Below are positions 2,871-32,000 of a DNA stretch of 32,000 nt, one piece after another. The notes below the pieces were generated by a model that did no database searches, had not been told where the DNA came from, and worked only from the letters and a program-made list of their open reading frames with translations. The position numbers and the translations under genes are program-made. The number at the start of each line of letters is the position of its first letter. Position 1 is the stretch's first letter. Source of the stretch: Wocania ichthyoenteri Th78 (GTDB taxonomy: Bacteria; Bacteroidota; Bacteroidia; Flavobacteriales; Flavobacteriaceae); the NCBI RefSeq assembly GCF_000789235.1, contig NZ_KN525716.1:1371674-1403673 (forward strand), written 5' to 3'.

Positions 2871-4460
2871 ATGAAAGTTCGTGAAAAGTTTATTTTAATT
2901 TCAATAATAGCAGTTGTATTAGCATGTGTTATAGCTTTATTTTGGCCACCTATTTTATGGACGCTTTTACTTATTGCGCCACTTGTAATAATGGGTGTTT
3001 TTGATATTCTTCAAAAAAAGCATACCATAAGAAGAAACTTTCCGCTAATAGGTCGATTTAGATATATTTTAGAATCTATTCGACCAGAAATCATGCAATA
3101 TTTTGTTGAAACGGATACAGAAGGAAGGCCTTTAAACCGCATATTAAGATCGTTAGTATACCGCAGAGCAAAAGGCGAAAATGACACCGAGCCTTTTGGT
3201 ACACAATTAAATTTATATCATTCTGGTTATGAATGGTTGGAACATTCAATGTATGCAAAAAATAACCCAAAAAACATTGGAAAATTTCCTCGTTTACTTA
3301 TCGGAGGAAAAGATTGTAAACAACCATATTCTTCAAGTTTGCTAAACATTTCTGCCATGAGTTTTGGCTCTTTAAGCACCAATGCCATTCTCGCATTAAA
3401 CAAAGGTGCTAAAATGGGCGATTTTGCACATAATACTGGAGAAGGAGGGATAAGCAACTATCATTTAGAACATGGTGGCGATCTTATTTGGCAAGTAGGA
3501 ACAGGATATTTTGGATGTAGAAAAGATGATGGAACGTTTAATGAAGATACTTTTAAAGAAAATGCTTTACGCCCACAAGTAAAAATGATTGAGATAAAAT
3601 TATCTCAAGGCGCCAAACCTGGACATGGTGGTATTTTACCAGCTATAAAAAACACAGAAGAGATCGCTAAAATAAGACATATAAAACCTGGAGTTGCGGT
3701 ACACTCTCCTCCGTCTCATTCTGCTTTTTCTGATCCTATTCAGTTTATGTATTTTATTAAAAAACTTCGTGATCTATCTGGAGGAAAACCAATTGGCTTT
3801 AAGCTTTGTCTTGGTCGTAAACAGGAATTTATGGATTTCTGTGAGGCTATGATTGCCACTGGTATTCAACCTGATTTTATAACTGTAGATGGTGGCGAAG
3901 GCGGTACGGGTGCTGCTCCAGTAGAATTTTCAAATTCCATGGGGATGCCATTACGCGAAGGATTAATTTTTGTTCACGATACTTTAATAGGATTTAATTT
4001 AAGAAAAGACATTAAAGTTATTGTTGCAGGTAAAATTATTACTGGTTTCCATATGGCAAGAGCCATAGCTTTAGGTGCTGATGGTTGCAATAGCGCACGT
4101 GCTATGATGCTTTCAATTGGATGTATTCAAGCTTTACAATGTAATAACAATACGTGTCCTGTTGGTGTTGCCACTCAAAATGCATCTTTAGTTAAAGGAT
4201 TAGTTGTAGAAGATAAAGCACCACGTGCCAAAAGATACCACGAAGCAACAATACAAAGTTTTCTAGAACTTGTAGCTGCTGCTGGTCTTAATAATCCAAA
4301 CGAATTAATCAGAAACCACATTAGCAAAAGAGTAGGTTTATATGATGTAAAAACTTATGAAGAGATTTACCCACACATGGAACCAGGTTCTCTTTTAGAT
4401 ATTAACAAAATTCCTGAAAACTATAAACGCTTTTTTCATTTAACCAGGATAATGAAATAG
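2871..4460 (+). CDS. FMN-binding glutamate synthase family protein (GltB FMN-domain-like, membrane anchored)
   Basis: 529 aa with two N-terminal TM helices. It carries FMN-domain motifs KLSQGAKPGHGGILP and TVDGGEGGTGAAP. Confidence 0.8.
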   Translation: MKVREKFILISIIAVVLACVIALFWPPILWTLLLIAPLVIMGVFDILQKKHTIRRNFPLIGRFRYILESIRPEIMQYFVETDTEGRPLNRILRSLVYRRAKGENDTEPFGTQLNLYHSGYEWLEHSMYAKNNPKNIGKFPRLLIGGKDCKQPYSSSLLNISAMSFGSLSTNAILALNKGAKMGDFAHNTGEGGISNYHLEHGGDLIWQVGTGYFGCRKDDGTFNEDTFKENALRPQVKMIEIKLSQGAKPGHGGILPAIKNTEEIAKIRHIKPGVAVHSPPSHSAFSDPIQFMYFIKKLRDLSGGKPIGFKLCLGRKQEFMDFCEAMIATGIQPDFITVDGGEGGTGAAPVEFSNSMGMPLREGLIFVHDTLIGFNLRKDIKVIVAGKIITGFHMARAIALGADGCNSARAMMLSIGCIQALQCNNNTCPVGVATQNASLVKGLVVEDKAPRAKRYHEATIQSFLELVAAAGLNNPNELIRNHISKRVGLYDVKTYEEIYPHMEPGSLLDINKIPENYKRFFHLTRIMK

Positions 4461-4527: not shown

Positions 4528-6564
4528 CTATTCTTTTATTTTTTCGAAAACACTCAAACCACATTCTAAAAACCTAGCATAATCTTCTTCATCTGGAGTA
4601 TAACCTACTGCCTGATTTAAAATTTTTGTGCCATCAGAATTTAATAATACATAATATGGTTGCGAATTTGTTTGAAAAAATTGTGTTTGAAAATTAGCCC
4701 ATTTATGTCCATAACTCTCAAGTTTTCTCGTCCCTCCGTTTACTCTATTAACATTTACTTGCTCGTCTTCTGGCAATGTTTTTTTATCATCTACATAAAG
4801 CGAAATTAACACATAATCGTTTCTTAAGTAATTATCAATCTTTTTAAGTGGCCAAACATGTTCTTCCATTTTTCTACAATTCACACATGCATAACCTGTA
4901 AAGTCTAACATAATAGGCTTATTAACCTTTTTAGCATATGCTATACCTGTTTTTAAATCTTTAAAGCATTCTAAATTATTAGGGCAGTCATTTGGATATA
5001 AAAAACTATAACCAACTGGTGGAGCTAGCCCACTTAACAATGTTAAAGGTGTAAATGTATTTGTTTCTTTATTTACTCTAAATCCCGAAACTAAATATAT
5101 AGTAAATGCTGCCACTAATACGCCTCCAGCTATTCTTGAAAATGATAGTTTCTTTATCGGTGAATCATGTGGAAATTTAATTTTCCCAAGCAGATATAAA
5201 GCTAATCCGCCAAAAATAATAATCCAAAGTATTAAAAAGGGTTCAATTTTTAAAAGATTCCAATGCGCTACTAAATCAGCATTCGATAAAAATTTGAATG
5301 CCAATGCTAATTCTAAAAACCCTAAAATTACTTTGGTCGTATTTAACCAACCGCCAGATTTTGGTAAAGCATTCATCATATTTGGAAACATAGCGAATAA
5401 TGCAAAAGGCAAGCCTAAAGACACTCCAAACCCTGCCATACCAGCGGTAAGTTGCCATGCACCACCATCTGCTGTCAATGAGCCTGCTAATAGCGATCCT
5501 AGAATAGGACCTGTACATGAAAATGACACAATAGCCAGCGTTAATGCCATAAAGAAAATACCAATAAAGCCTCCTGAACTTTCTCCTTGAGTTGTTTTAT
5601 TTGTCCAACTAGATGGTAAAGTTAATTCGTAATATCCAAAAAATGAAAATGCAAAAAATAAGAAAATTGCAAAGAATATAACATTTAACCACACGTTGGT
5701 TGATATTTCATTTAAAATATCTGGATTTACTGAATCTAATAAATGAAATGGAACACTTAAAATAATATAAACTGCAAAAATGAAAAACCCATAAAGCAAT
5801 GCTTTAGATACTCCTGAACCTTTATTTTGTCCGCTTTTTTTAGTAAAAAAACTTACTGTAAGAGGTATCATTGGAAACACACAAGGCGTTAATAATGCTA
5901 ACAAACCACCTAAGAAACCTAAACCAAAAATGCTCCATAATGATTTCCCTCCGCTTTGTACTTCTGATGCGTTACTAGTAACTTCATTTTCACATTTAAT
6001 ACTAGCCTTTTTTAAATCTTTAACAGATAATCCATAAAGTATATTATTAACAATCATATTATCTACCATTGGAGTAGTTTTATTATTGTCAGATGCTTCT
6101 AAGTTACTTTCTTTAGAAGAATTTATATTAAATACTAAATCTGCATAAGTTGGAGGCAAACACCTAGTATCATCACAAACCATAAACTCGACTTCGCCTT
6201 TAACTAACGACAGCTCATTATTTAATACTTTTATCCGTTGTTTAAAAACTACTTTATTTTCAAAAAACTTAATACGCATATTAAAAACGGGGTCATTTAT
6301 GGTGTGCCCCTCCTCTTCTAAAACCGTTTGAATTAATTCATAATCTTGATTATCCTGAAAAGCAAACGTTGTTGGAATCGGCCCACCTTCAGGCACATTT
6401 TGCGAATATAAATGCCAACCTTTATCTATTTTTGCCGTAGCAATAAGCTCATACTCAGTTTCTGAAACTTTCTCAACAGATGTTGACCATTCAACAGGTT
6501 CTAGTATTTGGGAAAAGGCATTAAAGCCTAGAGTTAATACTAAAATTAAAACTAATTTTTTCAT
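4528..6564 (-). CDS. dsbD: Thiol:disulfide interchange protein, DsbD-like three-domain architecture
   Basis: 678 aa with a signal peptide and an N-terminal periplasmic domain containing MVCDDTRCLPP. The central DsbD/CcdA-type TM core carries LTPCVFPMIPL and SFSCTGPILG. The C-terminal thioredoxin-like domain has a CxxC motif (YACVNCRKME). Confidence 0.85.
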   Translation of the reverse strand: MKKLVLILVLTLGFNAFSQILEPVEWSTSVEKVSETEYELIATAKIDKGWHLYSQNVPEGGPIPTTFAFQDNQDYELIQTVLEEEGHTINDPVFNMRIKFFENKVVFKQRIKVLNNELSLVKGEVEFMVCDDTRCLPPTYADLVFNINSSKESNLEASDNNKTTPMVDNMIVNNILYGLSVKDLKKASIKCENEVTSNASEVQSGGKSLWSIFGLGFLGGLLALLTPCVFPMIPLTVSFFTKKSGQNKGSGVSKALLYGFFIFAVYIILSVPFHLLDSVNPDILNEISTNVWLNVIFFAIFLFFAFSFFGYYELTLPSSWTNKTTQGESSGGFIGIFFMALTLAIVSFSCTGPILGSLLAGSLTADGGAWQLTAGMAGFGVSLGLPFALFAMFPNMMNALPKSGGWLNTTKVILGFLELALAFKFLSNADLVAHWNLLKIEPFLILWIIIFGGLALYLLGKIKFPHDSPIKKLSFSRIAGGVLVAAFTIYLVSGFRVNKETNTFTPLTLLSGLAPPVGYSFLYPNDCPNNLECFKDLKTGIAYAKKVNKPIMLDFTGYACVNCRKMEEHVWPLKKIDNYLRNDYVLISLYVDDKKTLPEDEQVNVNRVNGGTRKLESYGHKWANFQTQFFQTNSQPYYVLLNSDGTKILNQAVGYTPDEEDYARFLECGLSVFEKIKE

Positions 6565-6768: not shown

Positions 6769-12955
<6,187 letters not shown>

Positions 12956-25481: not shown

Positions 25482-26957
25482 TTAGAGAGTTGTTGTAGTT
25501 TCCATTGATTTCGCTCGTTTTTCAATAGTTTCAATCATGGATTTTAAGTAATTATTTTTAGGTCTTAATTCTAGAGCTAGAATACAATTTTCTTTGGAGA
25601 GATTTAGTTGATTGTCTATTAAATATGCTTCAGCTAAACTTGCATAGCAATTTGATGATTTTGGGTTTTCTTTAATATTCAACTTAAATACTTTTATAGC
25701 TTTTTTAATATTGTTCTTTTGCAGAAGAAGATAGCCAACAGCATTTAAGGTATTTTCAAATGAATAAGAGGATTTCTTATCTGATTCTTGTTCAGGATTA
25801 TTAGCTTTTACATTAAAGTAATTTTTAATAGCATCTTCATCATTTTTCAACAAAAAACAAGATATAATCTCATGTTGAACGTTTGCTTTGTGATACACTA
25901 ATTTAGAGTCAACAATACCAGCTACATGATTTATTATATCGTTATGAGGAGAAAAATATTTATACCCATTTGTTAAAACGATAATGGTAAGATTGTTATT
26001 AATAAACTTTCTAAAACCTGTTTGAGAACCACCTGTAAAACCATATGACACATTGTTGTTTAAAGAGTAAGTATGCCATCCATGAAGAAATTCATCAGTT
26101 TTATTATTAAATTTAAAAGGCTCCCACATTTTGTGTTTTAATTCGTTTCCTAATAAATGATTGTTATCCAAACGAGCATTCCATTCAACGAGTTCTTTTA
26201 AAGTAATGTTCATGCCATTGGCAGCATGGTATCTTCTTCCTCCATACACTTTAGAAATATTATATTCACCTTTCTCATTATTAAACTCATGACGACTAGC
26301 TCTGTTTAAAAATTCATCGCTTAGGTCTGATGAAAAGATAATATTACTTGAATCTTTTTGAAATTGGTTTGTAATAATAAAGTCCTCGAAAGACTGACTT
26401 GTTATTTTTTCAATAATTTTTGCTAGCAACCAATAATTTGTTTGATTGTATTCAAACTGATTGCCTGTATCAAAATGTAAACTTTCATTAATTAGTTTCG
26501 ACCAAATATCAGTATCAGAAATAGTTCCTTCTTTTACATAAAAATCTGGTAAACCAGAAGAATGTGTTAATAAGTGTTCTACTTTAATAGTTTGCCAGCT
26601 TTCAGGTAAATTACTAATGTATTTGGAAATCACATCCTCTAAAGATATTTTATGTTGCTCAATGAGCTGAAAAATAGCAGTACTTACAGCCAACTTGGTA
26701 ATGGAATAAACAGGAAAAAGGGTGTTTTTAGTTACAAGGGTGTTCTTTTCTAAATCGGCTTTTCCAAAGTATTCTTCATAAATTAAATTCCCATCTTTAA
26801 TAACAGCTAGTGCTATACCTGGAATTTCTTGTATTTGTATTTGCTCTTTAATATATGTTGTAATTTCATTATTTAAATTGTTTTCAGTTACATCTTTTTT
26901 ACAACCAAAAATTGTAAAAAGTAAGAGTAAAGTTGTAGTTGCTATAATTCTGTTCAT
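25482..26957 (-). CDS. Serine hydrolase of the beta-lactamase/PBP4-like (class C-like) family with C-terminal TPR-like extension, lipoprotein
   Basis: 491 aa with a lipoprotein signal (LLFTIFGC). The SxxK active-site motif is present (FPVYSITKLAV), and HSSGLPDF lies downstream. The C-terminal ~110 aa are helical-repeat-like. Confidence 0.75.
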   Translation of the reverse strand: MNRIIATTTLLLLFTIFGCKKDVTENNLNNEITTYIKEQIQIQEIPGIALAVIKDGNLIYEEYFGKADLEKNTLVTKNTLFPVYSITKLAVSTAIFQLIEQHKISLEDVISKYISNLPESWQTIKVEHLLTHSSGLPDFYVKEGTISDTDIWSKLINESLHFDTGNQFEYNQTNYWLLAKIIEKITSQSFEDFIITNQFQKDSSNIIFSSDLSDEFLNRASRHEFNNEKGEYNISKVYGGRRYHAANGMNITLKELVEWNARLDNNHLLGNELKHKMWEPFKFNNKTDEFLHGWHTYSLNNNVSYGFTGGSQTGFRKFINNNLTIIVLTNGYKYFSPHNDIINHVAGIVDSKLVYHKANVQHEIISCFLLKNDEDAIKNYFNVKANNPEQESDKKSSYSFENTLNAVGYLLLQKNNIKKAIKVFKLNIKENPKSSNCYASLAEAYLIDNQLNLSKENCILALELRPKNNYLKSMIETIEKRAKSMETTTTL

Positions 26958-27054
26958 TGATTTTTTTAGATTGATATACTACATAGACATTTTTTGTACT
27001 TCAATGTTACATAATAATTTATTGTGCTTAATGTTTTATGAGTGGTATTATATA

Positions 27055-27594
27055 TTAATTTGCACAGTTATCACCACATTTTTTATTTTTTTTATAATCC
27101 ATTATAGCACCTTTCCCTCCTTGTGTAATAGTACAACAATCTGATATTAATTTTTTTAATTTCACTCTGCCTCTTTGTATTTTAGATCGGACGGTTGTAT
27201 AATTTAAATTAAGTTTTTCGGCTATTTCTTTTTGTGAGAAATTTTCAATTTCCGATAAATTAATAATAGTGCGGTAATTTTCGGGTAATTGATTTACAAA
27301 TGGAGCAATACAATTGCTTAATTCATTAACTGTGTTTTTTTCTGATAATTCTTTTTGAAATTCGATAACCTCTATGTCTTCGGTAAACCGTTTTTTCTTT
27401 CGGTAATAATCTGTTATACTATTTTTTGCAATTGTGTACACCCAACTTTTAATATTTTTTACATTTTCATTTTTTGATGTGGATAGTTTGTAAAAAATTT
27501 CTTGAGTTAAATCTTCAGCATCTAATTGATTATTAATTCTTTTCCTGACATAAAGGAATAGAGGTTTATATAGTTGTTCTATTTGTTTTTCCAT
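27055..27594 (-). CDS. ECF-type sigma-70 family factor with Cys-rich C-terminal extension (SigZ/CorE-like layout)
   Basis: 179 aa. Region 2 reads DAEDLTQEIFYKL...WVYTIAKNSITDYYRKKKR. Region 4 reads LPENYRTIINLSEIENFSQKEIAEKLNLNYTTVRSKIQRGRVKLKKL. The tail SDCCTITQGGKGAIMDYKKNKKCGDNCAN contains CC and CxxxC. The start overlaps the MFS gene end by 29 nt. No anti-sigma gene is adjacent. Confidence 0.85.
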   Translation of the reverse strand: MEKQIEQLYKPLFLYVRKRINNQLDAEDLTQEIFYKLSTSKNENVKNIKSWVYTIAKNSITDYYRKKKRFTEDIEVIEFQKELSEKNTVNELSNCIAPFVNQLPENYRTIINLSEIENFSQKEIAEKLNLNYTTVRSKIQRGRVKLKKLISDCCTITQGGKGAIMDYKKNKKCGDNCAN

Positions 27595-28750
27595 TTTGAA
27601 TAATAAAATTAATAAATAAAGCAGTAATAAGAATTGTAAGAGCTAAGAATAAATAGTATTGACCAATATATTCTATTAATACGATGCCTAAAAAAGCTCC
27701 AAGTCCAGCTCCTAAATCCCACCAAGTGCTTACACTTGAAATAATTTGCAATGAATTATCGCTTTTTGTTTGCTGCTCAATTGCAATTAAAGGTGAAAAG
27801 GTAACTACTATAGCATTAGCCATAAAAGCAATAATAACACCCAATATAGTAAAGTTTATGGCGATTAAGAACATCGCTAGAATACATATAATTATTGAAA
27901 CACTAAACAATTTTAAGGACTCTATTTTTAAAGTAAGCATACCACTAATTAAAGATACACCAACCATTGCTATTCGTTTCAATAATAAGTAAGATGCTAC
28001 TAATATTAACAATTGTGGAGTGCTTATGGATGAATCGTTTAATAAGTTTGCAAGCACGACTACCAAAATACCGTCAATTGAAATTGCGAGAAAAGTAATT
28101 AATAAATTAAGTGTTGTAAACGAAAATGTTTGCTTAGTTTTTACCTTATTGGTTGGGGTGTGATTAAGATTAGATAAAGTGAAACTAAGAATTATAGCTA
28201 CTGAACTGATACTTGCTATAACAAATAATGTACTTTCAATACCAAAAGTGGAAATTAATATTGGACCAATGCATAACGCTACTAATGCTCCTAATGATTT
28301 AATACTTTGTGTTATTCCAAAAGTAAATCCAACATTGCTTTTTACTTTTGATGCATAATTCTGGGTTGAAATTTTTAAGCCAGAATAACTTAATCCCCAA
28401 ATAATTCTTGCCATAGCAAAGGTTATTAATCCTAATTTTAAGCCATAGACAAATGTGGTAATTACCGCAAAACAAGACGACCAAAGGAGTACCTTCTTCA
28501 TACCAATACTATTAATAATATTGGCAATCCAAGTGTTAGAGATTACTCTAACAAAGCGATTAATTGAGAGTAAAAAACCAACGCTTACTAGCGGAAGACC
28601 TAATCTTTCAGCATAAATTGGTAATACGGGATACAAAATAGCATCTCCAAGTCCTGCCAAAGCCATAATACCACTAGAAGTTAAAGCTCCCAAAAAATGG
28701 GAGCTTTTAGTAGTAGATATATCAATTTTTAATTTTCTACTTAACAACAA
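27566..28750 (-). CDS. MFS transporter (about 12 TM helices)
   Basis: 394-aa hydrophobic ORF with MFS-like loop motifs (INRFVRVISNTW). The only start that keeps TM1 is TTG at 28750 or 28747. That start overlaps the stop of the 59-aa CC-peptide ORF by 10 nt in another frame. Confidence 0.75.
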   Translation of the reverse strand: MLLSRKLKIDISTTKSSHFLGALTSSGIMALAGLGDAILYPVLPIYAERLGLPLVSVGFLLSINRFVRVISNTWIANIINSIGMKKVLLWSSCFAVITTFVYGLKLGLITFAMARIIWGLSYSGLKISTQNYASKVKSNVGFTFGITQSIKSLGALVALCIGPILISTFGIESTLFVIASISSVAIILSFTLSNLNHTPTNKVKTKQTFSFTTLNLLITFLAISIDGILVVVLANLLNDSSISTPQLLILVASYLLLKRIAMVGVSLISGMLTLKIESLKLFSVSIIICILAMFLIAINFTILGVIIAFMANAIVVTFSPLIAIEQQTKSDNSLQIISSVSTWWDLGAGLGAFLGIVLIEYIGQYYLFLALTILITALFINFIIQNGKTNRTTI

Positions 28751-28920
28751 CCTGTTTTTTCAGAATTCACTTCTTTAGATTCTGTTTTATCACAACAAGA
28801 GGAACCGTCTTCTGGTTGTTCACAACATGGTGTGTTTTGCTCTTTCACACTCGCAGTTGGTGTACAACATCCCGAGCTTTGTGTTGTTGTTTCTTCGGTA
28901 TTTAACTTACTTGTTTTCAT
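28741..28920 (-). CDS. Small Cys-pair-rich protein (59 aa, four CC doublets), absent from the supplied ORF track
   Basis: Hand translation of the minus strand gives MKTSKLNTEETTTQSSGCCTPTASVKEQNTPCCEQPEDGSSCCDKTESKEVNSEKTGCC*. The ATG is at 28920-28918 and an in-frame TAA lies 6 nt upstream. It sits 23 nt downstream of the 36-nt conserved ECF-type promoter block. The stop overlaps the MFS start. It is polar and acidic, with no TM segment or signal peptide. Confidence 0.65.
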   Translation of the reverse strand: MKTSKLNTEETTTQSSGCCTPTASVKEQNTPCCEQPEDGSSCCDKTESKEVNSEKTGCC

Positions 28921-28943
28921 AATTTAAATTTTTATAATTATAA

Positions 28944-28979
28944 TCACTTACTAAGACGAATAGTTGAAAAAATGATGCA
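28944..28979 (-). promoter_or_regulatory. ECF-type promoter copy A: TGCATC-N15-CGTCTTA-N3-AGTGA, upstream of the CC-peptide/MFS/sigma operon
   Basis: Minus-strand read: TGCATCATTTTTTCAACTATTCGTCTTAGTAAGTGA. It is identical to copy B at 29 of 36 positions with identical spacing. The -35-like element is at 28979-28974 and the -10-like CGTCTTA at 28958-28952. It begins 9 nt after the PIG-L stop codon. Confidence 0.65.
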
Positions 28980-28987
28980 TAAAATTC

Positions 28988-29710
28988 CTAAAGAATTAGA
29001 TTATCGGTTATTTTCTTTAGTGGGGGATAGTGATCTTCAAAAGCAATTTCAAAATGAACCTTATTTCCTATTTTTTCAATAACCCCTGTTTTTTCTACCA
29101 TTTCTTGATAGGTTTCGTAACACAGTAACGATTCTCTCATGGCAATAACATTATTCTTATTTAATGGTGTAATTACATCAATTAACTCACTCTCAGATAG
29201 TTTTAATCTTGGCCAACCATCTTTCATAAATGAAGGTGCTCCATTGTCTGGCATTGTAAAAAAAGCTAACCTTTTTAAATATTTTGCGCCATTATCTTTC
29301 ATTTCAAGAAACACTCTTTTTACTACAGCATAAGTAACTAAATGGTCGTGAAAACCACTACCTCCATGAACAGGATAGGTTATTACTATGTTGGGTTGTA
29401 TTCGTTCAATTTCTTTTTGAACGTCTCTTTCTATTATTCTTGGATCAAGTTCTTTTAACCGACTATCTGGGTAGTCTAATAGTGTAAATCCTGAAAAATG
29501 GAGTACTTTTTTTACATCAAGCATCTCGTTATGGCGGATGATTCCCATTTCCTCTATACTTAGATTTAGCTTATGCCTAACCTGGGTTGCGCCTCCTTTA
29601 GTTAGGGTGAGTAAATAAACGTCATTGCCATCATTTACTTGTTGATTTATTGCTCCAGCAGGCCCGAATGATTCATCATCGGGATGTGGAAATACATATA
29701 ATATTTTCAT
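28988..29710 (-). CDS. PIG-L/LmbE-family N-acetylglucosaminyl deacetylase or amidase (BshB/Bca-like)
   Basis: 240 aa with the N-terminal family hallmark MKILYVFPHPDDESFGPAG (the zinc-binding HPDDE motif) and a downstream HHDH-type region (GSGFHDHLVTY). It starts 17 nt after the flavoprotein gene on the same strand. Confidence 0.8.
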   Translation of the reverse strand: MKILYVFPHPDDESFGPAGAINQQVNDGNDVYLLTLTKGGATQVRHKLNLSIEEMGIIRHNEMLDVKKVLHFSGFTLLDYPDSRLKELDPRIIERDVQKEIERIQPNIVITYPVHGGSGFHDHLVTYAVVKRVFLEMKDNGAKYLKRLAFFTMPDNGAPSFMKDGWPRLKLSESELIDVITPLNKNNVIAMRESLLCYETYQEMVEKTGVIEKIGNKVHFEIAFEDHYPPLKKITDNLIL

Positions 29711-29727
29711 TTTTTTTCATTTTTAAT

Positions 29728-31005
29728 TTAACAACAACTTCCTTCACTCACGCTATCCGAGCTACAGACCCCTGTTTCTGGTAAGTTTAATTCTACTCTT
29801 TTTGCAGATTCAAAATCTCCATCTAAGTATGCCACAACGGATCGTACTTGCTCATACCCCGTAGCCATCAAAAATGTGGGAGCTCTTCCATAACTTTTAG
29901 AGCCAACTATGTAAAAGTCTTTTTCTGGATGTCTTAATTCTTTTTCACCGTGAGGACGTACTGTTCCACAGCTATGTGTATTGGGATCAATTAGTTCGGC
30001 TAAGTCAAAAACAGACTCCAATGAAGCGTCTAAATCGATTCTTACTTCACGGATCATATCTAAGTTAGGTCGCGAACCTGTATTGCTAATTATTTCATCA
30101 ATATTGGATATGGTCTCATTTTCTCCATTTAGCTCTCCATCTATTTGGATTCCATTTTTATTCACTGTTAATTTTAGAATATGAAAGTGCGTATAAACAT
30201 TCAATTTTTTACCATTTATCAATCCTTCAAGGCGTGCACCCAAAGCACCTCTTGCCTCGAATGCGTCATCTTCTTTTCCTCCATAAACAACTGAAAGATC
30301 TTTTTTTCGTAATACCCAGTTTATTTGTGTATTGGAATATTTCTTTTGAATATCTGCCAAGTCCAGTAAAACATTCATAGCAGAGTGTCCTCCTCCAACA
30401 ACCAGAATATTTTTATTCTTATAACGATTTAATAGATCTCCTTTAATATTAGGAATACCATAGAAAATATTATTTTTAATCTCTTGTTCTCCTTCTGCAA
30501 AGACTCCTCCAGATCCGATAGGATTGGGCTGATTCCAAGTGCCAGAGGAGTCAATTATGGCTTTTGCCTCATAATATTTCGTCTGATTGTTTTCAATTAC
30601 TTTAATTATAAACGGTTTGTTTTCTCTATTGGCTGTTTTCATTTTATCCAATCCTTTTCTTCCGATAGATACTACTTCTGTATTTAAATGTATATAGGGT
30701 TGAATTTGTGGATGTTGTGAAAGTGGATGGAAGTATTTATCTACCAATTCTTTTCCGGTTGGTAGACCTTCTTTATTGGGGATTTCCCAATTTGTTTGTA
30801 AAAGTAATTCTTCAGCAATTTTATCAATATTATATTTCCAAGGTGAAAATACTTTTATATGTTGCCAAGACAAGATATTTTGCCCAACGGAACTTCCTAA
30901 TTCAAACAAAATAAAAGGAATTTTTCTTTTGGCTAGGTGGGCTGCGGCAACCAGACCTATAGATCCACCACCAATAATAGCAATAGGTAATTTATTAATT
31001 TGCAT
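29728..31005 (-). CDS. Two-dinucleotide-binding-domain flavoprotein (FAD/NAD(P)H oxidoreductase, CzcO/ArsO/FMO-like) with C-terminal Cys-Cys tail
   Basis: 425 aa. FAD GxGxxG motif at IAIIGGGSIGLVAAAHL and a second Rossmann motif at ILVVGGGHSAMNVLLDL. The C-terminus reads ...LPETGVCSSDSVSEGSCC*. There is no CxxxxC next to the FAD motif. Confidence 0.7.
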   Translation of the reverse strand: MQINKLPIAIIGGGSIGLVAAAHLAKRKIPFILFELGSSVGQNILSWQHIKVFSPWKYNIDKIAEELLLQTNWEIPNKEGLPTGKELVDKYFHPLSQHPQIQPYIHLNTEVVSIGRKGLDKMKTANRENKPFIIKVIENNQTKYYEAKAIIDSSGTWNQPNPIGSGGVFAEGEQEIKNNIFYGIPNIKGDLLNRYKNKNILVVGGGHSAMNVLLDLADIQKKYSNTQINWVLRKKDLSVVYGGKEDDAFEARGALGARLEGLINGKKLNVYTHFHILKLTVNKNGIQIDGELNGENETISNIDEIISNTGSRPNLDMIREVRIDLDASLESVFDLAELIDPNTHSCGTVRPHGEKELRHPEKDFYIVGSKSYGRAPTFLMATGYEQVRSVVAYLDGDFESAKRVELNLPETGVCSSDSVSEGSCC

Positions 31006-31021
31006 TTGTTGTTGTTTTGAT

Positions 31022-31057
31022 TCACTCCATAAGACGAGTATTTCAAAAAAAGATGCA
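31022..31057 (-). promoter_or_regulatory. ECF-type promoter copy B: TGCATC-N15-CGTCTTA-N3-AGTGA, upstream of the flavoprotein/PIG-L operon
   Basis: Minus-strand read: TGCATCTTTTTTTGAAATACTCGTCTTATGGAGTGA. The -35-like element is at 31057-31052 and the -10-like element at 31036-31030. The block ends 16 nt upstream of the ATG at 31005. Confidence 0.65.
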
Positions 31058-31114
31058 GAATTTCGATAATATTCTTTTTACCTATAAATCAAGTAATTAT
31101 ATAGTACCTTTGTT

Positions 31115-31600
31115 CTAGTACATTTTTTCTTTAATTTGTTTTATGTGTTCCCACTCATGATGCGCCTTCATTTTAATCATTTGAGTTATTGTTACAGGAG
31201 AGAATTTACCATAATACCTAATTTCGTGCTTTATATTTAACTGATCAGTATCTTTGTTTTCGCGAATCATATTTATTATTTCCTCATTAATTTGTTCAAT
31301 TATGTTTATCAACTCCCAAAGGTCAGAACTCTGATACTTTTCTACATTTTTATCATTAAAATCCGTCCAGTTATTTTTTGAACTTATATGCCATGGAAAA
31401 GTTTGGTCTTTTGTTTTTAATAGGAATTTTATTTCATCTCTAAATTGTTCCGCCCACCCAATTAAATGAGCGACTGTTTCATTCAAATTCCAACAACTTG
31501 TTATCATGATTTTTTTAGATGCTGTGCCATTCAAGTTGATTGTGATTTTTTTGAGACTTTGAAGTGGTAAATTCAGGTGGTTAATACTTTCTTCAATCAT
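31115..31600 (-). CDS. DinB-family (DinB_2/YfiT-like) four-helix-bundle metalloprotein
   Basis: 161 aa with a His-triad pattern typical of the DinB superfamily (ETVAHLIGWAEQF ... MKAHHEWEHIKQI). Confidence 0.65.
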   Translation of the reverse strand: MIEESINHLNLPLQSLKKITINLNGTASKKIMITSCWNLNETVAHLIGWAEQFRDEIKFLLKTKDQTFPWHISSKNNWTDFNDKNVEKYQSSDLWELINIIEQINEEIINMIRENKDTDQLNIKHEIRYYGKFSPVTITQMIKMKAHHEWEHIKQIKEKMY

Positions 31601-31682
31601 TATTTCAATTTATTAAAATTATTTGTACATCATTTTAATTAAATTCCCTCTTAATGGGGAAAACCAAAGGAGAGAGTTATGT

Positions 31683-32000
31683 TTATTTGTTTTCAATTCG
31701 CCAAGGAGGGTTTAATCGATTTTTTCCACCACTAAATAATATCAATTGATTTCCGTCAACATCTTTCAGTCTTGCCTCTTTCCATAACCATCTTTGGTCA
31801 GTTGGATCTTGGTCAAACGCAATACCCCTTTTTTTTTTAAATTTTCTCAACTTGTTCGTCAAGGTTTTTACATTCAAAATACACATAAATCCCTTCTCCT
31901 TTTGGCAATTCCTCAGCTTGGTGTATCGAAAAAATTGAGTTTCCATTTGGGCATTCAAATCTGGAGTAATGTGGCAAGGATTCTACTATTAATTTCAGCC
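31683..32000 (-). pseudogene. VOC/glyoxalase-family gene with an apparent frameshift; its 5' end lies outside the window
   Basis: The C-terminal part comes from the 91-aa track ORF: KKRGIAFDQDPTDQRWLWKEARLKDVDGNQLILFSGG. The VOC-like upstream part is in another frame (31998-31840): LKLIVESLPHYSRFECPNGNSIFSIHQAEELPKGEGIYVYFECKNLDEQVEKI*. The frames meet at GAGAAAATTTAAAAAAAAAAGGGG (31848-31825). The N-terminal 40 aa of the track ORF read as nonsense. Confidence 0.5.

Follow-up and report, generated by a model that had tools for sequence, protein, structure and literature searches.

We analyzed a stretch of 32,000 nucleotides from Wocania ichthyoenteri Th78 (contig NZ_KN525716.1), hereafter called the window, whose minus strand carries a small gene for a peptide in which every cysteine belongs to a Cys-Cys (CC) doublet. 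In minus-strand order, the surrounding features are a DinB_2 superfamily gene, a first promoter (P1), a flavoprotein gene, a PIG-L deacetylase/amidase gene, a second promoter (P2), the CC peptide gene, a major facilitator superfamily (MFS) transporter gene and a gene for an extracytoplasmic function (ECF) sigma factor. An earlier note on this DNA, made from the sequence alone, had suggested that the peptide might buffer metal(loid)s, act as a thiol redox relay partner to the flavoprotein or, less likely, be a precursor peptide.

A conserved gene for a CC-doublet peptide

The peptide gene (28741..28920, minus strand) begins with ATG and encodes 59 amino acids (aa), MKTSKLNTEETTTQSSGCCTPTASVKEQNTPCCEQPEDGSSCCDKTESKEVNSEKTGCC, exactly as translated in the earlier note. 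All 8 Cys form doublets, at residues 18-19, 32-33, 42-43 and 58-59, and the residues before them are G, P, S and G; the reported net charge of -4 also agrees with our reading of the sequence (6 K, 10 D/E). Cys makes up 13.6% of the peptide (8 Cys/59 aa), and both His and CxxC are absent from its sequence. We refer to this layout, M-K-T...G-CC...P-CC-E-Q-P-x-D-G-S-S-CC-D-K...V-N..K-T-G-CC-end, as type A. Eight Cys placed at random in 59 positions would form four doublets with a probability of about C(55,4)/C(59,8) = 1.5e-4, a figure made irrelevant by the conservation of the CC pairs in homologues.

An in-frame TAA stands at -6..-4 ahead of the ATG, and at its other end the gene overlaps the MFS start, with TTG codons 28750/28747 falling within the last peptide codons; both features had been described correctly. 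The last 11 nt are indeed common to the peptide and flavoprotein genes, which both close with GTTGTTGTTAA, a coincidence that is trivial because both genes finish x-Cys-Cys-stop with TGT codons. As for the open reading frame (ORF) being unlisted, it does fall below the size cut-off of the gene track supplied to that note, but NCBI has an identical hypothetical protein from Wocania ichthyoenteri.

A first search returned 13 homologues with 57-80% identity. In the resulting 14-sequence alignment, C18, C19, P31, C32, C33, E34, Q35, P36, D38, C42 and C43 are invariant, and so are D44, K45, V51, N52, K55, T56 and G57. A profile search against 1.84 billion representatives gave 23 matches, nearly all of them peptides of 41-110 aa, and the same kind of search against a 5.8-billion-sequence set gave at least 227 proteins (homologue clusters) at E<=0.1; among the matches listed from this larger set, every protein is called 'hypothetical' and Pfam domains are lacking. 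Their named sources comprise Aquimarina, Marinoscillum, Saprospiraceae, Chryseolinea, Chitinophagaceae and Caldithrix. Across nine syntenic loci, the pairwise ratio of nonsynonymous to synonymous substitutions (dN/dS) of the peptide gene is 0.10-0.45, with dS near-saturated, and conserved Cys codons switch between TGT and TGC. The peptide frame is moreover the only frame open in all nine. The earlier note had proposed looking for an intact ORF in syntenic loci of relatives and for short CC-pair ORFs beside SigZ/CorE-like sigma genes: the frame is kept in 9/9 such loci, and ORFs of this kind recur next to such sigma genes. The ORF at 28741-28920 is a real, conserved protein-coding gene, and a spurious ORF was rejected on the basis of conservation, dN/dS and the upstream promoter described below.

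The suggestion that the peptide is probably disordered fits a low-confidence AlphaFold2 (AF2) model that is mostly coil, at a predicted local distance difference test (pLDDT) score of 59.8; the model also holds a single short helix at residues 49-56. Scans of the peptide against Pfam and NCBIfam returned 0 families at E<=0.01, and a PDB profile search with the peptide-family alignment returned no match at E<=1. Likewise, no Rfam family was found in 26500-32000, and tblastn of the peptide against plasmids gave no match.

An ECF-type promoter and a Cys-tailed sigma factor

The promoter P2 (GCATCATTTTTTCAACTATTCGTCT, 28954..28978, minus strand) has a -35-like TGCATCA and a -10-like CGTCTTA and precedes the peptide-MFS-sigma operon. 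A second copy of this ECF-type motif, P1 (GCATCTTTTTTTGAAATACTCGTCT, 31032..31056, minus strand), precedes the flavoprotein and PIG-L genes, and the two intergenic regions have TGCATC-N15-CGTCTTA in common. What the earlier note had called a conserved promoter block proved real, as GCATC-N13-18-CGTCT occurs at 2 sites in the 32 kb versus 0.06 expected. A generic sigma-70 and terminator scan found nothing above the shuffle background.

Scanning of metagenome contigs with a degenerate DNA pattern for the core motif CC-[EDA]-Q-P-x-D-G-x-x-CC yielded 60 loci. About 45 of the 60 encode 'type B' peptides (MET..EIPVLQKSK..CC..CC..CCAQPxDGSxCCDK), and few encode type A. Among the 46 free-standing peptide genes drawn from these loci, GCATC-N15-16-CGTCT stands ~25 nt before the ATG in 42 (36 strict and 6 loose matches). 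Over all loci, the gene downstream of the 67 strict promoter matches is the peptide in 40 cases, the flavoprotein in 14 and the sigma factor in 3, and most of the remaining matches stand before secreted Cys-rich small proteins. In related loci the motif precedes peptide, flavoprotein and secreted CC-rich peptide genes alike. The sigma gene itself is preceded by the promoter in loci L011 and L012; the boxes of L011 are altered to GCGTC and CGTGT, and its sigma factor is only ~33% identical to that of the window. In L074, a lone peptide gene has the same promoter and a terminator, and a sigma gene is absent within 6.6 kb. Because the promoter motif precedes it across loci, including the sigma-less L074, the peptide belongs, judging from these sequences, to the core of this sigma family's regulon. 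The lone peptide gene of L074 is followed by genes for a class I S-adenosylmethionine (SAM) methyltransferase and then a DUF4386 membrane protein (2915-4272 for all three), and methyltransferases are also found near the module in L001 (TehB-like) and L002.

A second small Cys-rich family, whose members carry signal peptides (e.g., ...AQSCCTTKKENCKPKVCCPTTPTCCK...), is encoded within these operons or downstream of the same GCATC..CGTCT promoter (L003 7732-7938; L010 871-1149; L011 5578-5772; L046 707-871; L037 ~8130-8330; L050 ~5550-5800), suggesting that the cytoplasmic CC peptide has a counterpart in the periplasm. In L006 (7427-9477) and L050 (5487-7191), a third promoter copy stands before genes for a secreted Cys-containing protein and a DUF4405/DUF2271-like membrane protein, and the L006 operon also holds a TlpA/ResA-like thioredoxin. 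These third-promoter operons hint that the regulon may include a periplasmic thiol-redox branch.

The sigma gene (27055..27594, minus strand) overlaps the end of the MFS gene by 29 nt and encodes a SigZ/CorE-like ECF sigma factor with Sigma70_r2 and r4_2 domains (Pfam) and a Cys-rich C-terminal extension (..DCCTITQGGKGAIMDYKKNKKCGDNCAN). Its best NCBIfam matches are both to SigZ, at 170.2 bits (NF007215, cut-off 212) and 156.2 bits (TIGR02959, cut-off 168.65), which places it below both curated cut-offs for membership of the SigZ equivalog. As is typical of the ECF238/CorE-like group, it combines sigma2 and sigma4 domains with a Cys-rich C-terminal extension, and an anti-sigma-like gene was not seen in the operon. 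One linker Cys, CC156-157 and two C-terminal Cys are kept in 11-13 of 13 homologues, and the CC at the start of the extension is invariant among them. The characterized ECF238 members CorE and CorE2 sense metals via Cys-rich C-terminal domains (PMC7826278, PMC4937300), and the presence of CxC within the sigma2-sigma4 linker is the signature of ECF44 (PMC4937300). This CxC motif is absent from the window sigma, which has a single linker Cys (NCIAPF), or CC in divergent homologues. The likeness to CorE/CorE2 (ECF44/ECF238) consists of the lack of an anti-sigma factor, the Cys-rich extension, the linker Cys and a position adjoining the targets. In contrast to CorE/CorE2, the window sigma has no CxC linker, its tail opens with a CC pair, it targets the genes of a CC peptide, a flavoprotein and an MFS transporter rather than those of Cu oxidases or cation diffusion facilitator (CDF) pumps, and it belongs to a member of the Bacteroidota; its likely ligand, as far as sequence can tell, would be an arsenical.

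A second sigma paralogue, ~31-36% identical, has a Cys in its linker and terminates in ...GYGNVILCKDxxxCC. Its gene closes operons of the order arsR-LMWPc-arsN1-like-sigma or ACR3-arsN1-like-sigma, which are convergent with the peptide gene (L023 1746-2273; L040 4156-4698; L056 1061-1633; L067 4026-4553; L073 4308-4841; L024 6173-6703; L062 310-855).

The sigma gene is the most constant neighbor of the peptide gene, and some loci hold only these two. Together with the absence of an anti-sigma gene and the strong conservation of non-Cys residues, which suggests a protein partner, this raises the question of whether the peptide regulates the sigma factor itself, either as a co-sensor or as a small anti-sigma-like partner that would bind the sigma Cys tail directly or via a shared metal and set the induction threshold, instead of being an effector. 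We regard such a role as very unlikely, given that the peptide has neither a ZAS motif (HxxxCxxC) nor a transmembrane segment, that the same CC module also tails enzymes of ArsR-regulated operons devoid of sigma genes, and that L074 has a lone peptide. The first two features also led us to reject a classical (ZAS-type) anti-sigma factor.

Module partners and a portable CC motif

Neighboring genes were clustered across 71 loci, many of them on short contigs. A sigma homologue is present in 54/71 loci, the MFS transporter in 38/71 and the flavoprotein in 32/71. The flavoprotein, the MFS transporter, the SigZ/CorE-like sigma factor and the peptide form a conserved module of variable order and stable membership. 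The order flavoprotein-(PIG-L)-peptide-MFS-sigma is found in the window, L001-L005 and L007, and flavoprotein-MFS-sigma-peptide in L006, L008, L013 and most soil loci. L009 has peptide-MFS-sigma, L011 and L012 have the sigma gene and peptide gene(s) only, and L010 (with part of the order also in L046) has sigma, a secreted CC protein, flavoprotein, peptide, a membrane protein with a CC tail and MFS.

The flavoprotein gene (29728..31005, minus strand) encodes a 425-aa FAD/NAD(P)-binding protein (Pyr_redox_3, 1.5e-15) that ends ...ETGVCSSDSVSEGSCC, with GSCC at its C-terminus. Its homologues number in the thousands and bear generic names such as 'NAD(P)-binding', 'thioredoxin reductase', 'glutamate synthase' and 'CzcO'. 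Among curated families it comes nearest to ArsO (44 bits, cut-off 425) and YpdA/Bdr (38.9 bits), with scores that fall far short of the cut-offs in both cases. The AF2 model is of moderate quality (pLDDT 67) and poor at 310-361, a segment that holds the conserved HSCG Cys; its best PDB fold matches are the bacillithiol disulfide reductase Bdr/YpdA, thioredoxin reductase (TrxR)-like ferredoxin-NADP+ reductase (FNR) and TrxR, and N-hydroxylating monooxygenases rank lower. The conserved Cys are Cys346 (HSCG), Cys414 (ETGVCS) and a variable tail with 1-2 CC pairs, and a CxxC pair is absent from the alignment. The fold matches thus place the flavoprotein in the TrxR/Bdr/flavin-containing monooxygenase (FMO)-like superfamily. 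Candidate chemistries are disulfide reduction and the kind of reaction reported for ArsV, in which a bound trivalent arsenical would be oxidized. The flexible vicinal-Cys tail recalls the C-terminal Cys-Cys of MerA and the Cys-Sec or Cys-Cys of high-Mr TrxR, and by analogy it could ferry a ligand or electrons into or out of the active site. The window protein differs from these enzymes in its predicted low-Mr TrxR/Bdr-like fold of two dinucleotide domains, which is not class I, and in the lack of a CxxxxC active-site disulfide.

The MFS gene (27566..28750, minus strand; 394 aa as listed; PF07690 MFS_1, 5.4e-18) has a TTG start and is translationally coupled to the peptide gene. TTG 28750/28747 are the only plausible starts that keep the conserved N-terminus, and in homologues, too, the peptide stop is overlapped or directly adjoined by the MFS start. 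The PIG-L deacetylase/amidase gene (28988..29710, minus strand; 240 aa; PF02585, 4.1e-27), located between the flavoprotein and peptide genes, is an accessory found in only 4 loci (the window, L002, L003 and L035), and the similarity of its product to BshB2/Mca is weak and below cut-offs. The DinB_2 superfamily gene (31115..31600, minus strand; PF12867, 8.7e-07) lies upstream of P1 and is perhaps also accessory, its membership being uncertain; a DinB_2/MST-like gene is found near the module in L049 as well and is conserved nowhere else.

In two assemblies (L057/L058), the flavoprotein runs past ETGVCS into ...EEACCEQPDDGTSCCVKSAPKEVNYEKTGCC, which corresponds to the C-terminal two thirds of the peptide, and no separate peptide gene stands ahead of the MFS gene. 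This Rosetta-stone fusion argues for direct cooperation of peptide and flavoprotein. The earlier note had proposed that the peptide is a redox partner of the flavoprotein: the fusion supports a direct link between the two, and the redox role itself would be one reading of it drawn from sequence. In such a relay, or sacrificial buffer, vicinal dithiols of the peptide that an electrophile or oxidant has oxidized would be re-reduced by the flavoprotein with NAD(P)H, its C-terminal CC acting as a mobile redox centre. The flavoprotein folds named above, the presence of YpdA among its best NCBIfam matches, the nearby PIG-L (BshB/Mca-like) and DinB_2 (thiol transferase superfamily) genes and the TlpA/ResA-like genes in L006 are all consistent with it. 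The flavoprotein, however, has no CxxC pair, L011, L012 and L074 have a peptide and no nearby flavoprotein, and the secreted CC peptides would be left without an NAD(P)H partner. Furthermore, the same tail occurs on ArsI and ArsM (see below), which bind As(III)/MAs(III) on Cys, favoring ligand capture over electron transfer. We therefore hold a redox relay to be distinctly unlikely.

The core motif, often with another CC before it in a low-complexity acidic stretch, is not restricted to free-standing peptides. In 7 loci, it forms the C-terminal tail of ~165-185-aa proteins with a TTCCYARQDK signature, and these tailed ArsI/CadI proteins score 171, 127 and 170 bits on the equivalog model NF041414 (cut-off 116). 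L038 has the order ArsR-ArsI(tail)-x-ACR3 (447 bits, cut-off 283)-ArsN1-like, and in L052 an ArsR gene lies directly upstream of the tailed ArsI gene. P0035 (L015), the C-terminal piece of a frameshifted ArsM from an ArsR-LMWPc-ArsM operon, carries GCCSPSMKEDECCEQPADGSACCDKP. At the low-GC locus L041, a tailed ArsI gene preceded by a promoter of the same kind, GCACC-N17-CGTCT, is followed after 3 nt by a gene for a SigZ-like sigma factor with a ...FTCC..C..C tail. The motif also tails a small membrane protein of ~137-165 aa with apparently four hydrophobic segments (...ACCDKSLSKEANATSTSCC), which is encoded between the peptide and MFS genes (L010 2850-3263; L046 2653-3090; P0105) and has no Pfam or NCBIfam match. 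Judged from these sequences, the CC module is portable, occurring free-standing, on the flavoprotein, on the membrane protein and on ArsI/CadI and ArsM. The ArsM of L015 (5451-6534) and the ArsI of L038 (6225-6808) both appear frameshifted just before the Cys-rich tail, which could reflect assembly errors or real frameshifts at a low-complexity junction.

These fusions also bear on the proposal that the peptide is a precursor of a ribosomally synthesized and post-translationally modified peptide (RiPP) exported by the MFS transporter. A small Cys-rich ORF adjoining transporter and oxidoreductase genes would fit such a system. However, no locus has a radical-SAM, YcaO, lanthipeptide or other maturase, a leader/core split is absent, and enzymes carry the same sequence as their C-terminal tail. 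We consider this origin extremely improbable, and the precursor peptide of the earlier note was rejected as effectively excluded on account of the enzyme fusions and the lack of a maturase.

Arsenic-type neighbors and the proposed function

Many free-standing peptide genes share their loci with arsenic-type genes. ACR3 is found in L049 (448 bits) and L053 (461 bits; cut-off 283), and in L073 through clustering with these. ArsO-family monooxygenases occur in L006, L050/L059, L053 and L067, at 478 bits in L006 and 485 in L050 (cut-off 425), and with 52-53% identity by tblastn in L053 and L067. ArsR/SmtB regulators are present in L023, L039, L040 and L053, and ArsN1-like GNATs in 9 loci. Altogether, 13 related loci carry ACR3, ArsO, ArsR or ArsN1-like genes. 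Other recurrent neighbors are FMN_red (5 loci), PAP2 (10 loci) and DUF4405/DUF2271 membrane proteins (5 loci), and no transporter of Cu, Zn, Cd or Hg recurs among the neighbor clusters of the 71 loci. The tails of ArsI/CadI and ArsM are, in addition, the sole detectable homology of the peptide to annotated proteins. ArsI holds organoarsenicals on a vicinal Cys pair (PMC6138428), and regulators that respond to As(III) use a vicinal CC plus a third Cys, e.g., Cys36/37/157 of MarR_ars (bioRxiv 10.1101/2021.08.12.456183).

From these sequence relationships, we propose that the peptide may be disordered, induced by the sigma factor and able to bind or chaperone trivalent arsenicals or a different thiophilic metal, a reading that we favor at about even confidence. 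The sigma Cys cluster would bind a thiophilic metal(loid), the likeliest ligands being As(III), methylarsenite and Sb(III), and the ligand-bound sigma factor would turn on two operons, flavoprotein(-PIG-L) and peptide-MFS-sigma. The CC pairs of the peptide would then capture the metal(loid) and buffer the cytoplasm, and its conserved ...KEVN..KTGCC end would hand the bound metal(loid) on to the flavoprotein, there to be oxidized or redox-processed, and/or to the MFS exporter. Removal of free ligand by the peptide would also provide negative feedback on the sigma factor. Working analogies for such a route are delivery from ArsD to ArsA and, within MerA, from the C-terminal CC to the active site.

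The earlier proposal of a metallothionein- or ArsD-like metal(loid) buffer is thus favored as to function, by the enzyme tails, the Cys-tailed sigma factor and the loci with only sigma and peptide, and fails as to family membership. ArsD binds As(III) on vicinal Cys pairs and passes it to the efflux system encoded alongside, and the vicinal Cys and presumed hand-over of As(III) make it a working analogy for the peptide. Nevertheless, ArsD is a folded, thioredoxin-like protein of ~120 aa with Cys12-Cys13-Cys18 (PF06953) and ArsA as partner, in contrast to a 59-aa predicted coil, and membership of the ArsD family was rejected as the peptide has no PF06953 match, only 59 aa and a coil with one short helix. 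No ArsA-like cluster was found among the recurrent neighbors in the 71 loci, where the partners are MFS, flavoprotein and sigma. Bacterial metallothioneins (SmtA/BmtA, MymT) offer another analogy, resembling the peptide in small size, richness in Cys, lack of a hydrophobic core and, presumably, metal-responsive expression. Unlike in these proteins, the peptide Cys occur only as CC doublets and not in CxC, CxxC or His patterns, non-Cys residues are conserved, and control is exerted by a sigma factor rather than SmtB/ArsR. Membership of a metallothionein family was rejected since there were 0 Pfam, 0 NCBIfam and no PDB profile matches. The closest likeness in sequence is the core motif common to the peptide and the tails of the ArsI/CadI C-As lyase and the ArsM methyltransferase; unlike these tails, the peptide has its own gene, its own ECF-type promoter and the extra conserved ...KEVN..KTGCC end.

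Several observations weigh against an arsenical as the ligand. Those relatives of the sigma factor that have been characterized use Cys-rich tails to sense Cu or Cd/Zn and not As, NF041414 takes in the cadmium-induced CadI besides ArsI, and the window's own 32 kb holds no ars gene. Marine type A loci show an arsenic-type neighbor, ArsO, only in L006 and L050/L059, and most of the ars linkage comes from the soil type B subfamily, which has only the core motif in common with type A. The ArsN1-like GNATs score 126-140 bits against the ArsN1a model, which has a cut-off of 170, and the MFS transporter has no match to ArsJ, ArsK or another equivalog in NCBIfam. Moreover, the fold matches of the flavoprotein, to thiol-disulfide and ferredoxin reductases, fit a redox role equally well, and the PIG-L and DinB_2 neighbors indicate low-molecular-weight-thiol chemistry in general. 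The first three of these points, together with the secreted CC-rich peptides in the same operons, would suit a metallothionein-like buffer for a non-arsenic metal (Cd/Zn, Cu(I) or Hg), with CorE/CorE2-type sigma induction and an MFS transporter exporting a metal-thiol complex. We deem such a buffer fairly unlikely: genes for CzcD, P-type ATPases or CopZ and mer genes do not recur in the module's vicinity, the recurrent neighbors and fusion partners are ACR3, ArsO, ArsR, ArsN1-like proteins, ArsM and ArsI, and the CxC linker that defines CorE is missing from the sigma factor.

If the ligand is indeed an arsenical, the sigma family might be the first sigma-based sensor of trivalent arsenicals, and CC-[EDA]-QPxDGxxCC might be an unrecognized portable arsenical-capture module of Bacteroidota, used in free, secreted and membrane-anchored forms and as a tail that harvests substrate for ArsI, ArsM and the new flavoprotein. 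Sensor and module together might then amount to a fourth architecture for regulating and trafficking arsenic, beside ArsR, MarR_ars and AioXSR. We put forward this broader view tentatively, as somewhat less probable than its opposite. In the literature searched, whose coverage is incomplete, no description was found of the CC module, the family of peptides, the module of four genes or any ECF sigma factor linked to arsenic, nor any described function for the Cys-rich tails of ArsI and ArsM.

Elsewhere in the window, a 1008-aa ORF (9929-12955, minus strand) combines an APH phosphotransferase, a Peptidase_M23 domain and a class III aminotransferase in an unusual fusion. A stand-alone Glu_synthase-domain protein is encoded ~22 kb from the sigma gene (2871-4460, plus strand), and one in L001 (9915-11702) directly adjoins the sigma gene, which may be a coincidence. 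Other genes encode a DsbD-type thiol:disulfide interchange protein (4528-6564, minus strand), a SusC/SusD pair and, after it, a 1106-aa protein with abundant D-x-D-x-D-G-like repeats, of FG-GAP/VCBS type by eye (17085-25126, plus strand), and a beta-lactamase-fold protein with C-terminal TPR repeats (25482-26957, minus strand).

What appears to be new here is the peptide family, the type of regulator and the partners for Cys-rich metal(loid) handling, a kind of function that is itself already known. If the proposed role is correct, it would define an unnamed family of small proteins widespread in marine and soil Bacteroidota, with at least 227 clusters, and the unexplained Cys-rich tails of ArsI and ArsM would gain a function. 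A large uncharacterized part of the SigZ/ECF238 group would likewise gain a regulon together with a promoter motif and a candidate for its ligand, and the pair of promoter and sigma factor could make a compact biosensor. For the bacteria that carry it, the module would represent a new flavoprotein-MFS route for the detoxification of arsenic or soft metals in degraders of organoarsenical-rich algal and plant matter.

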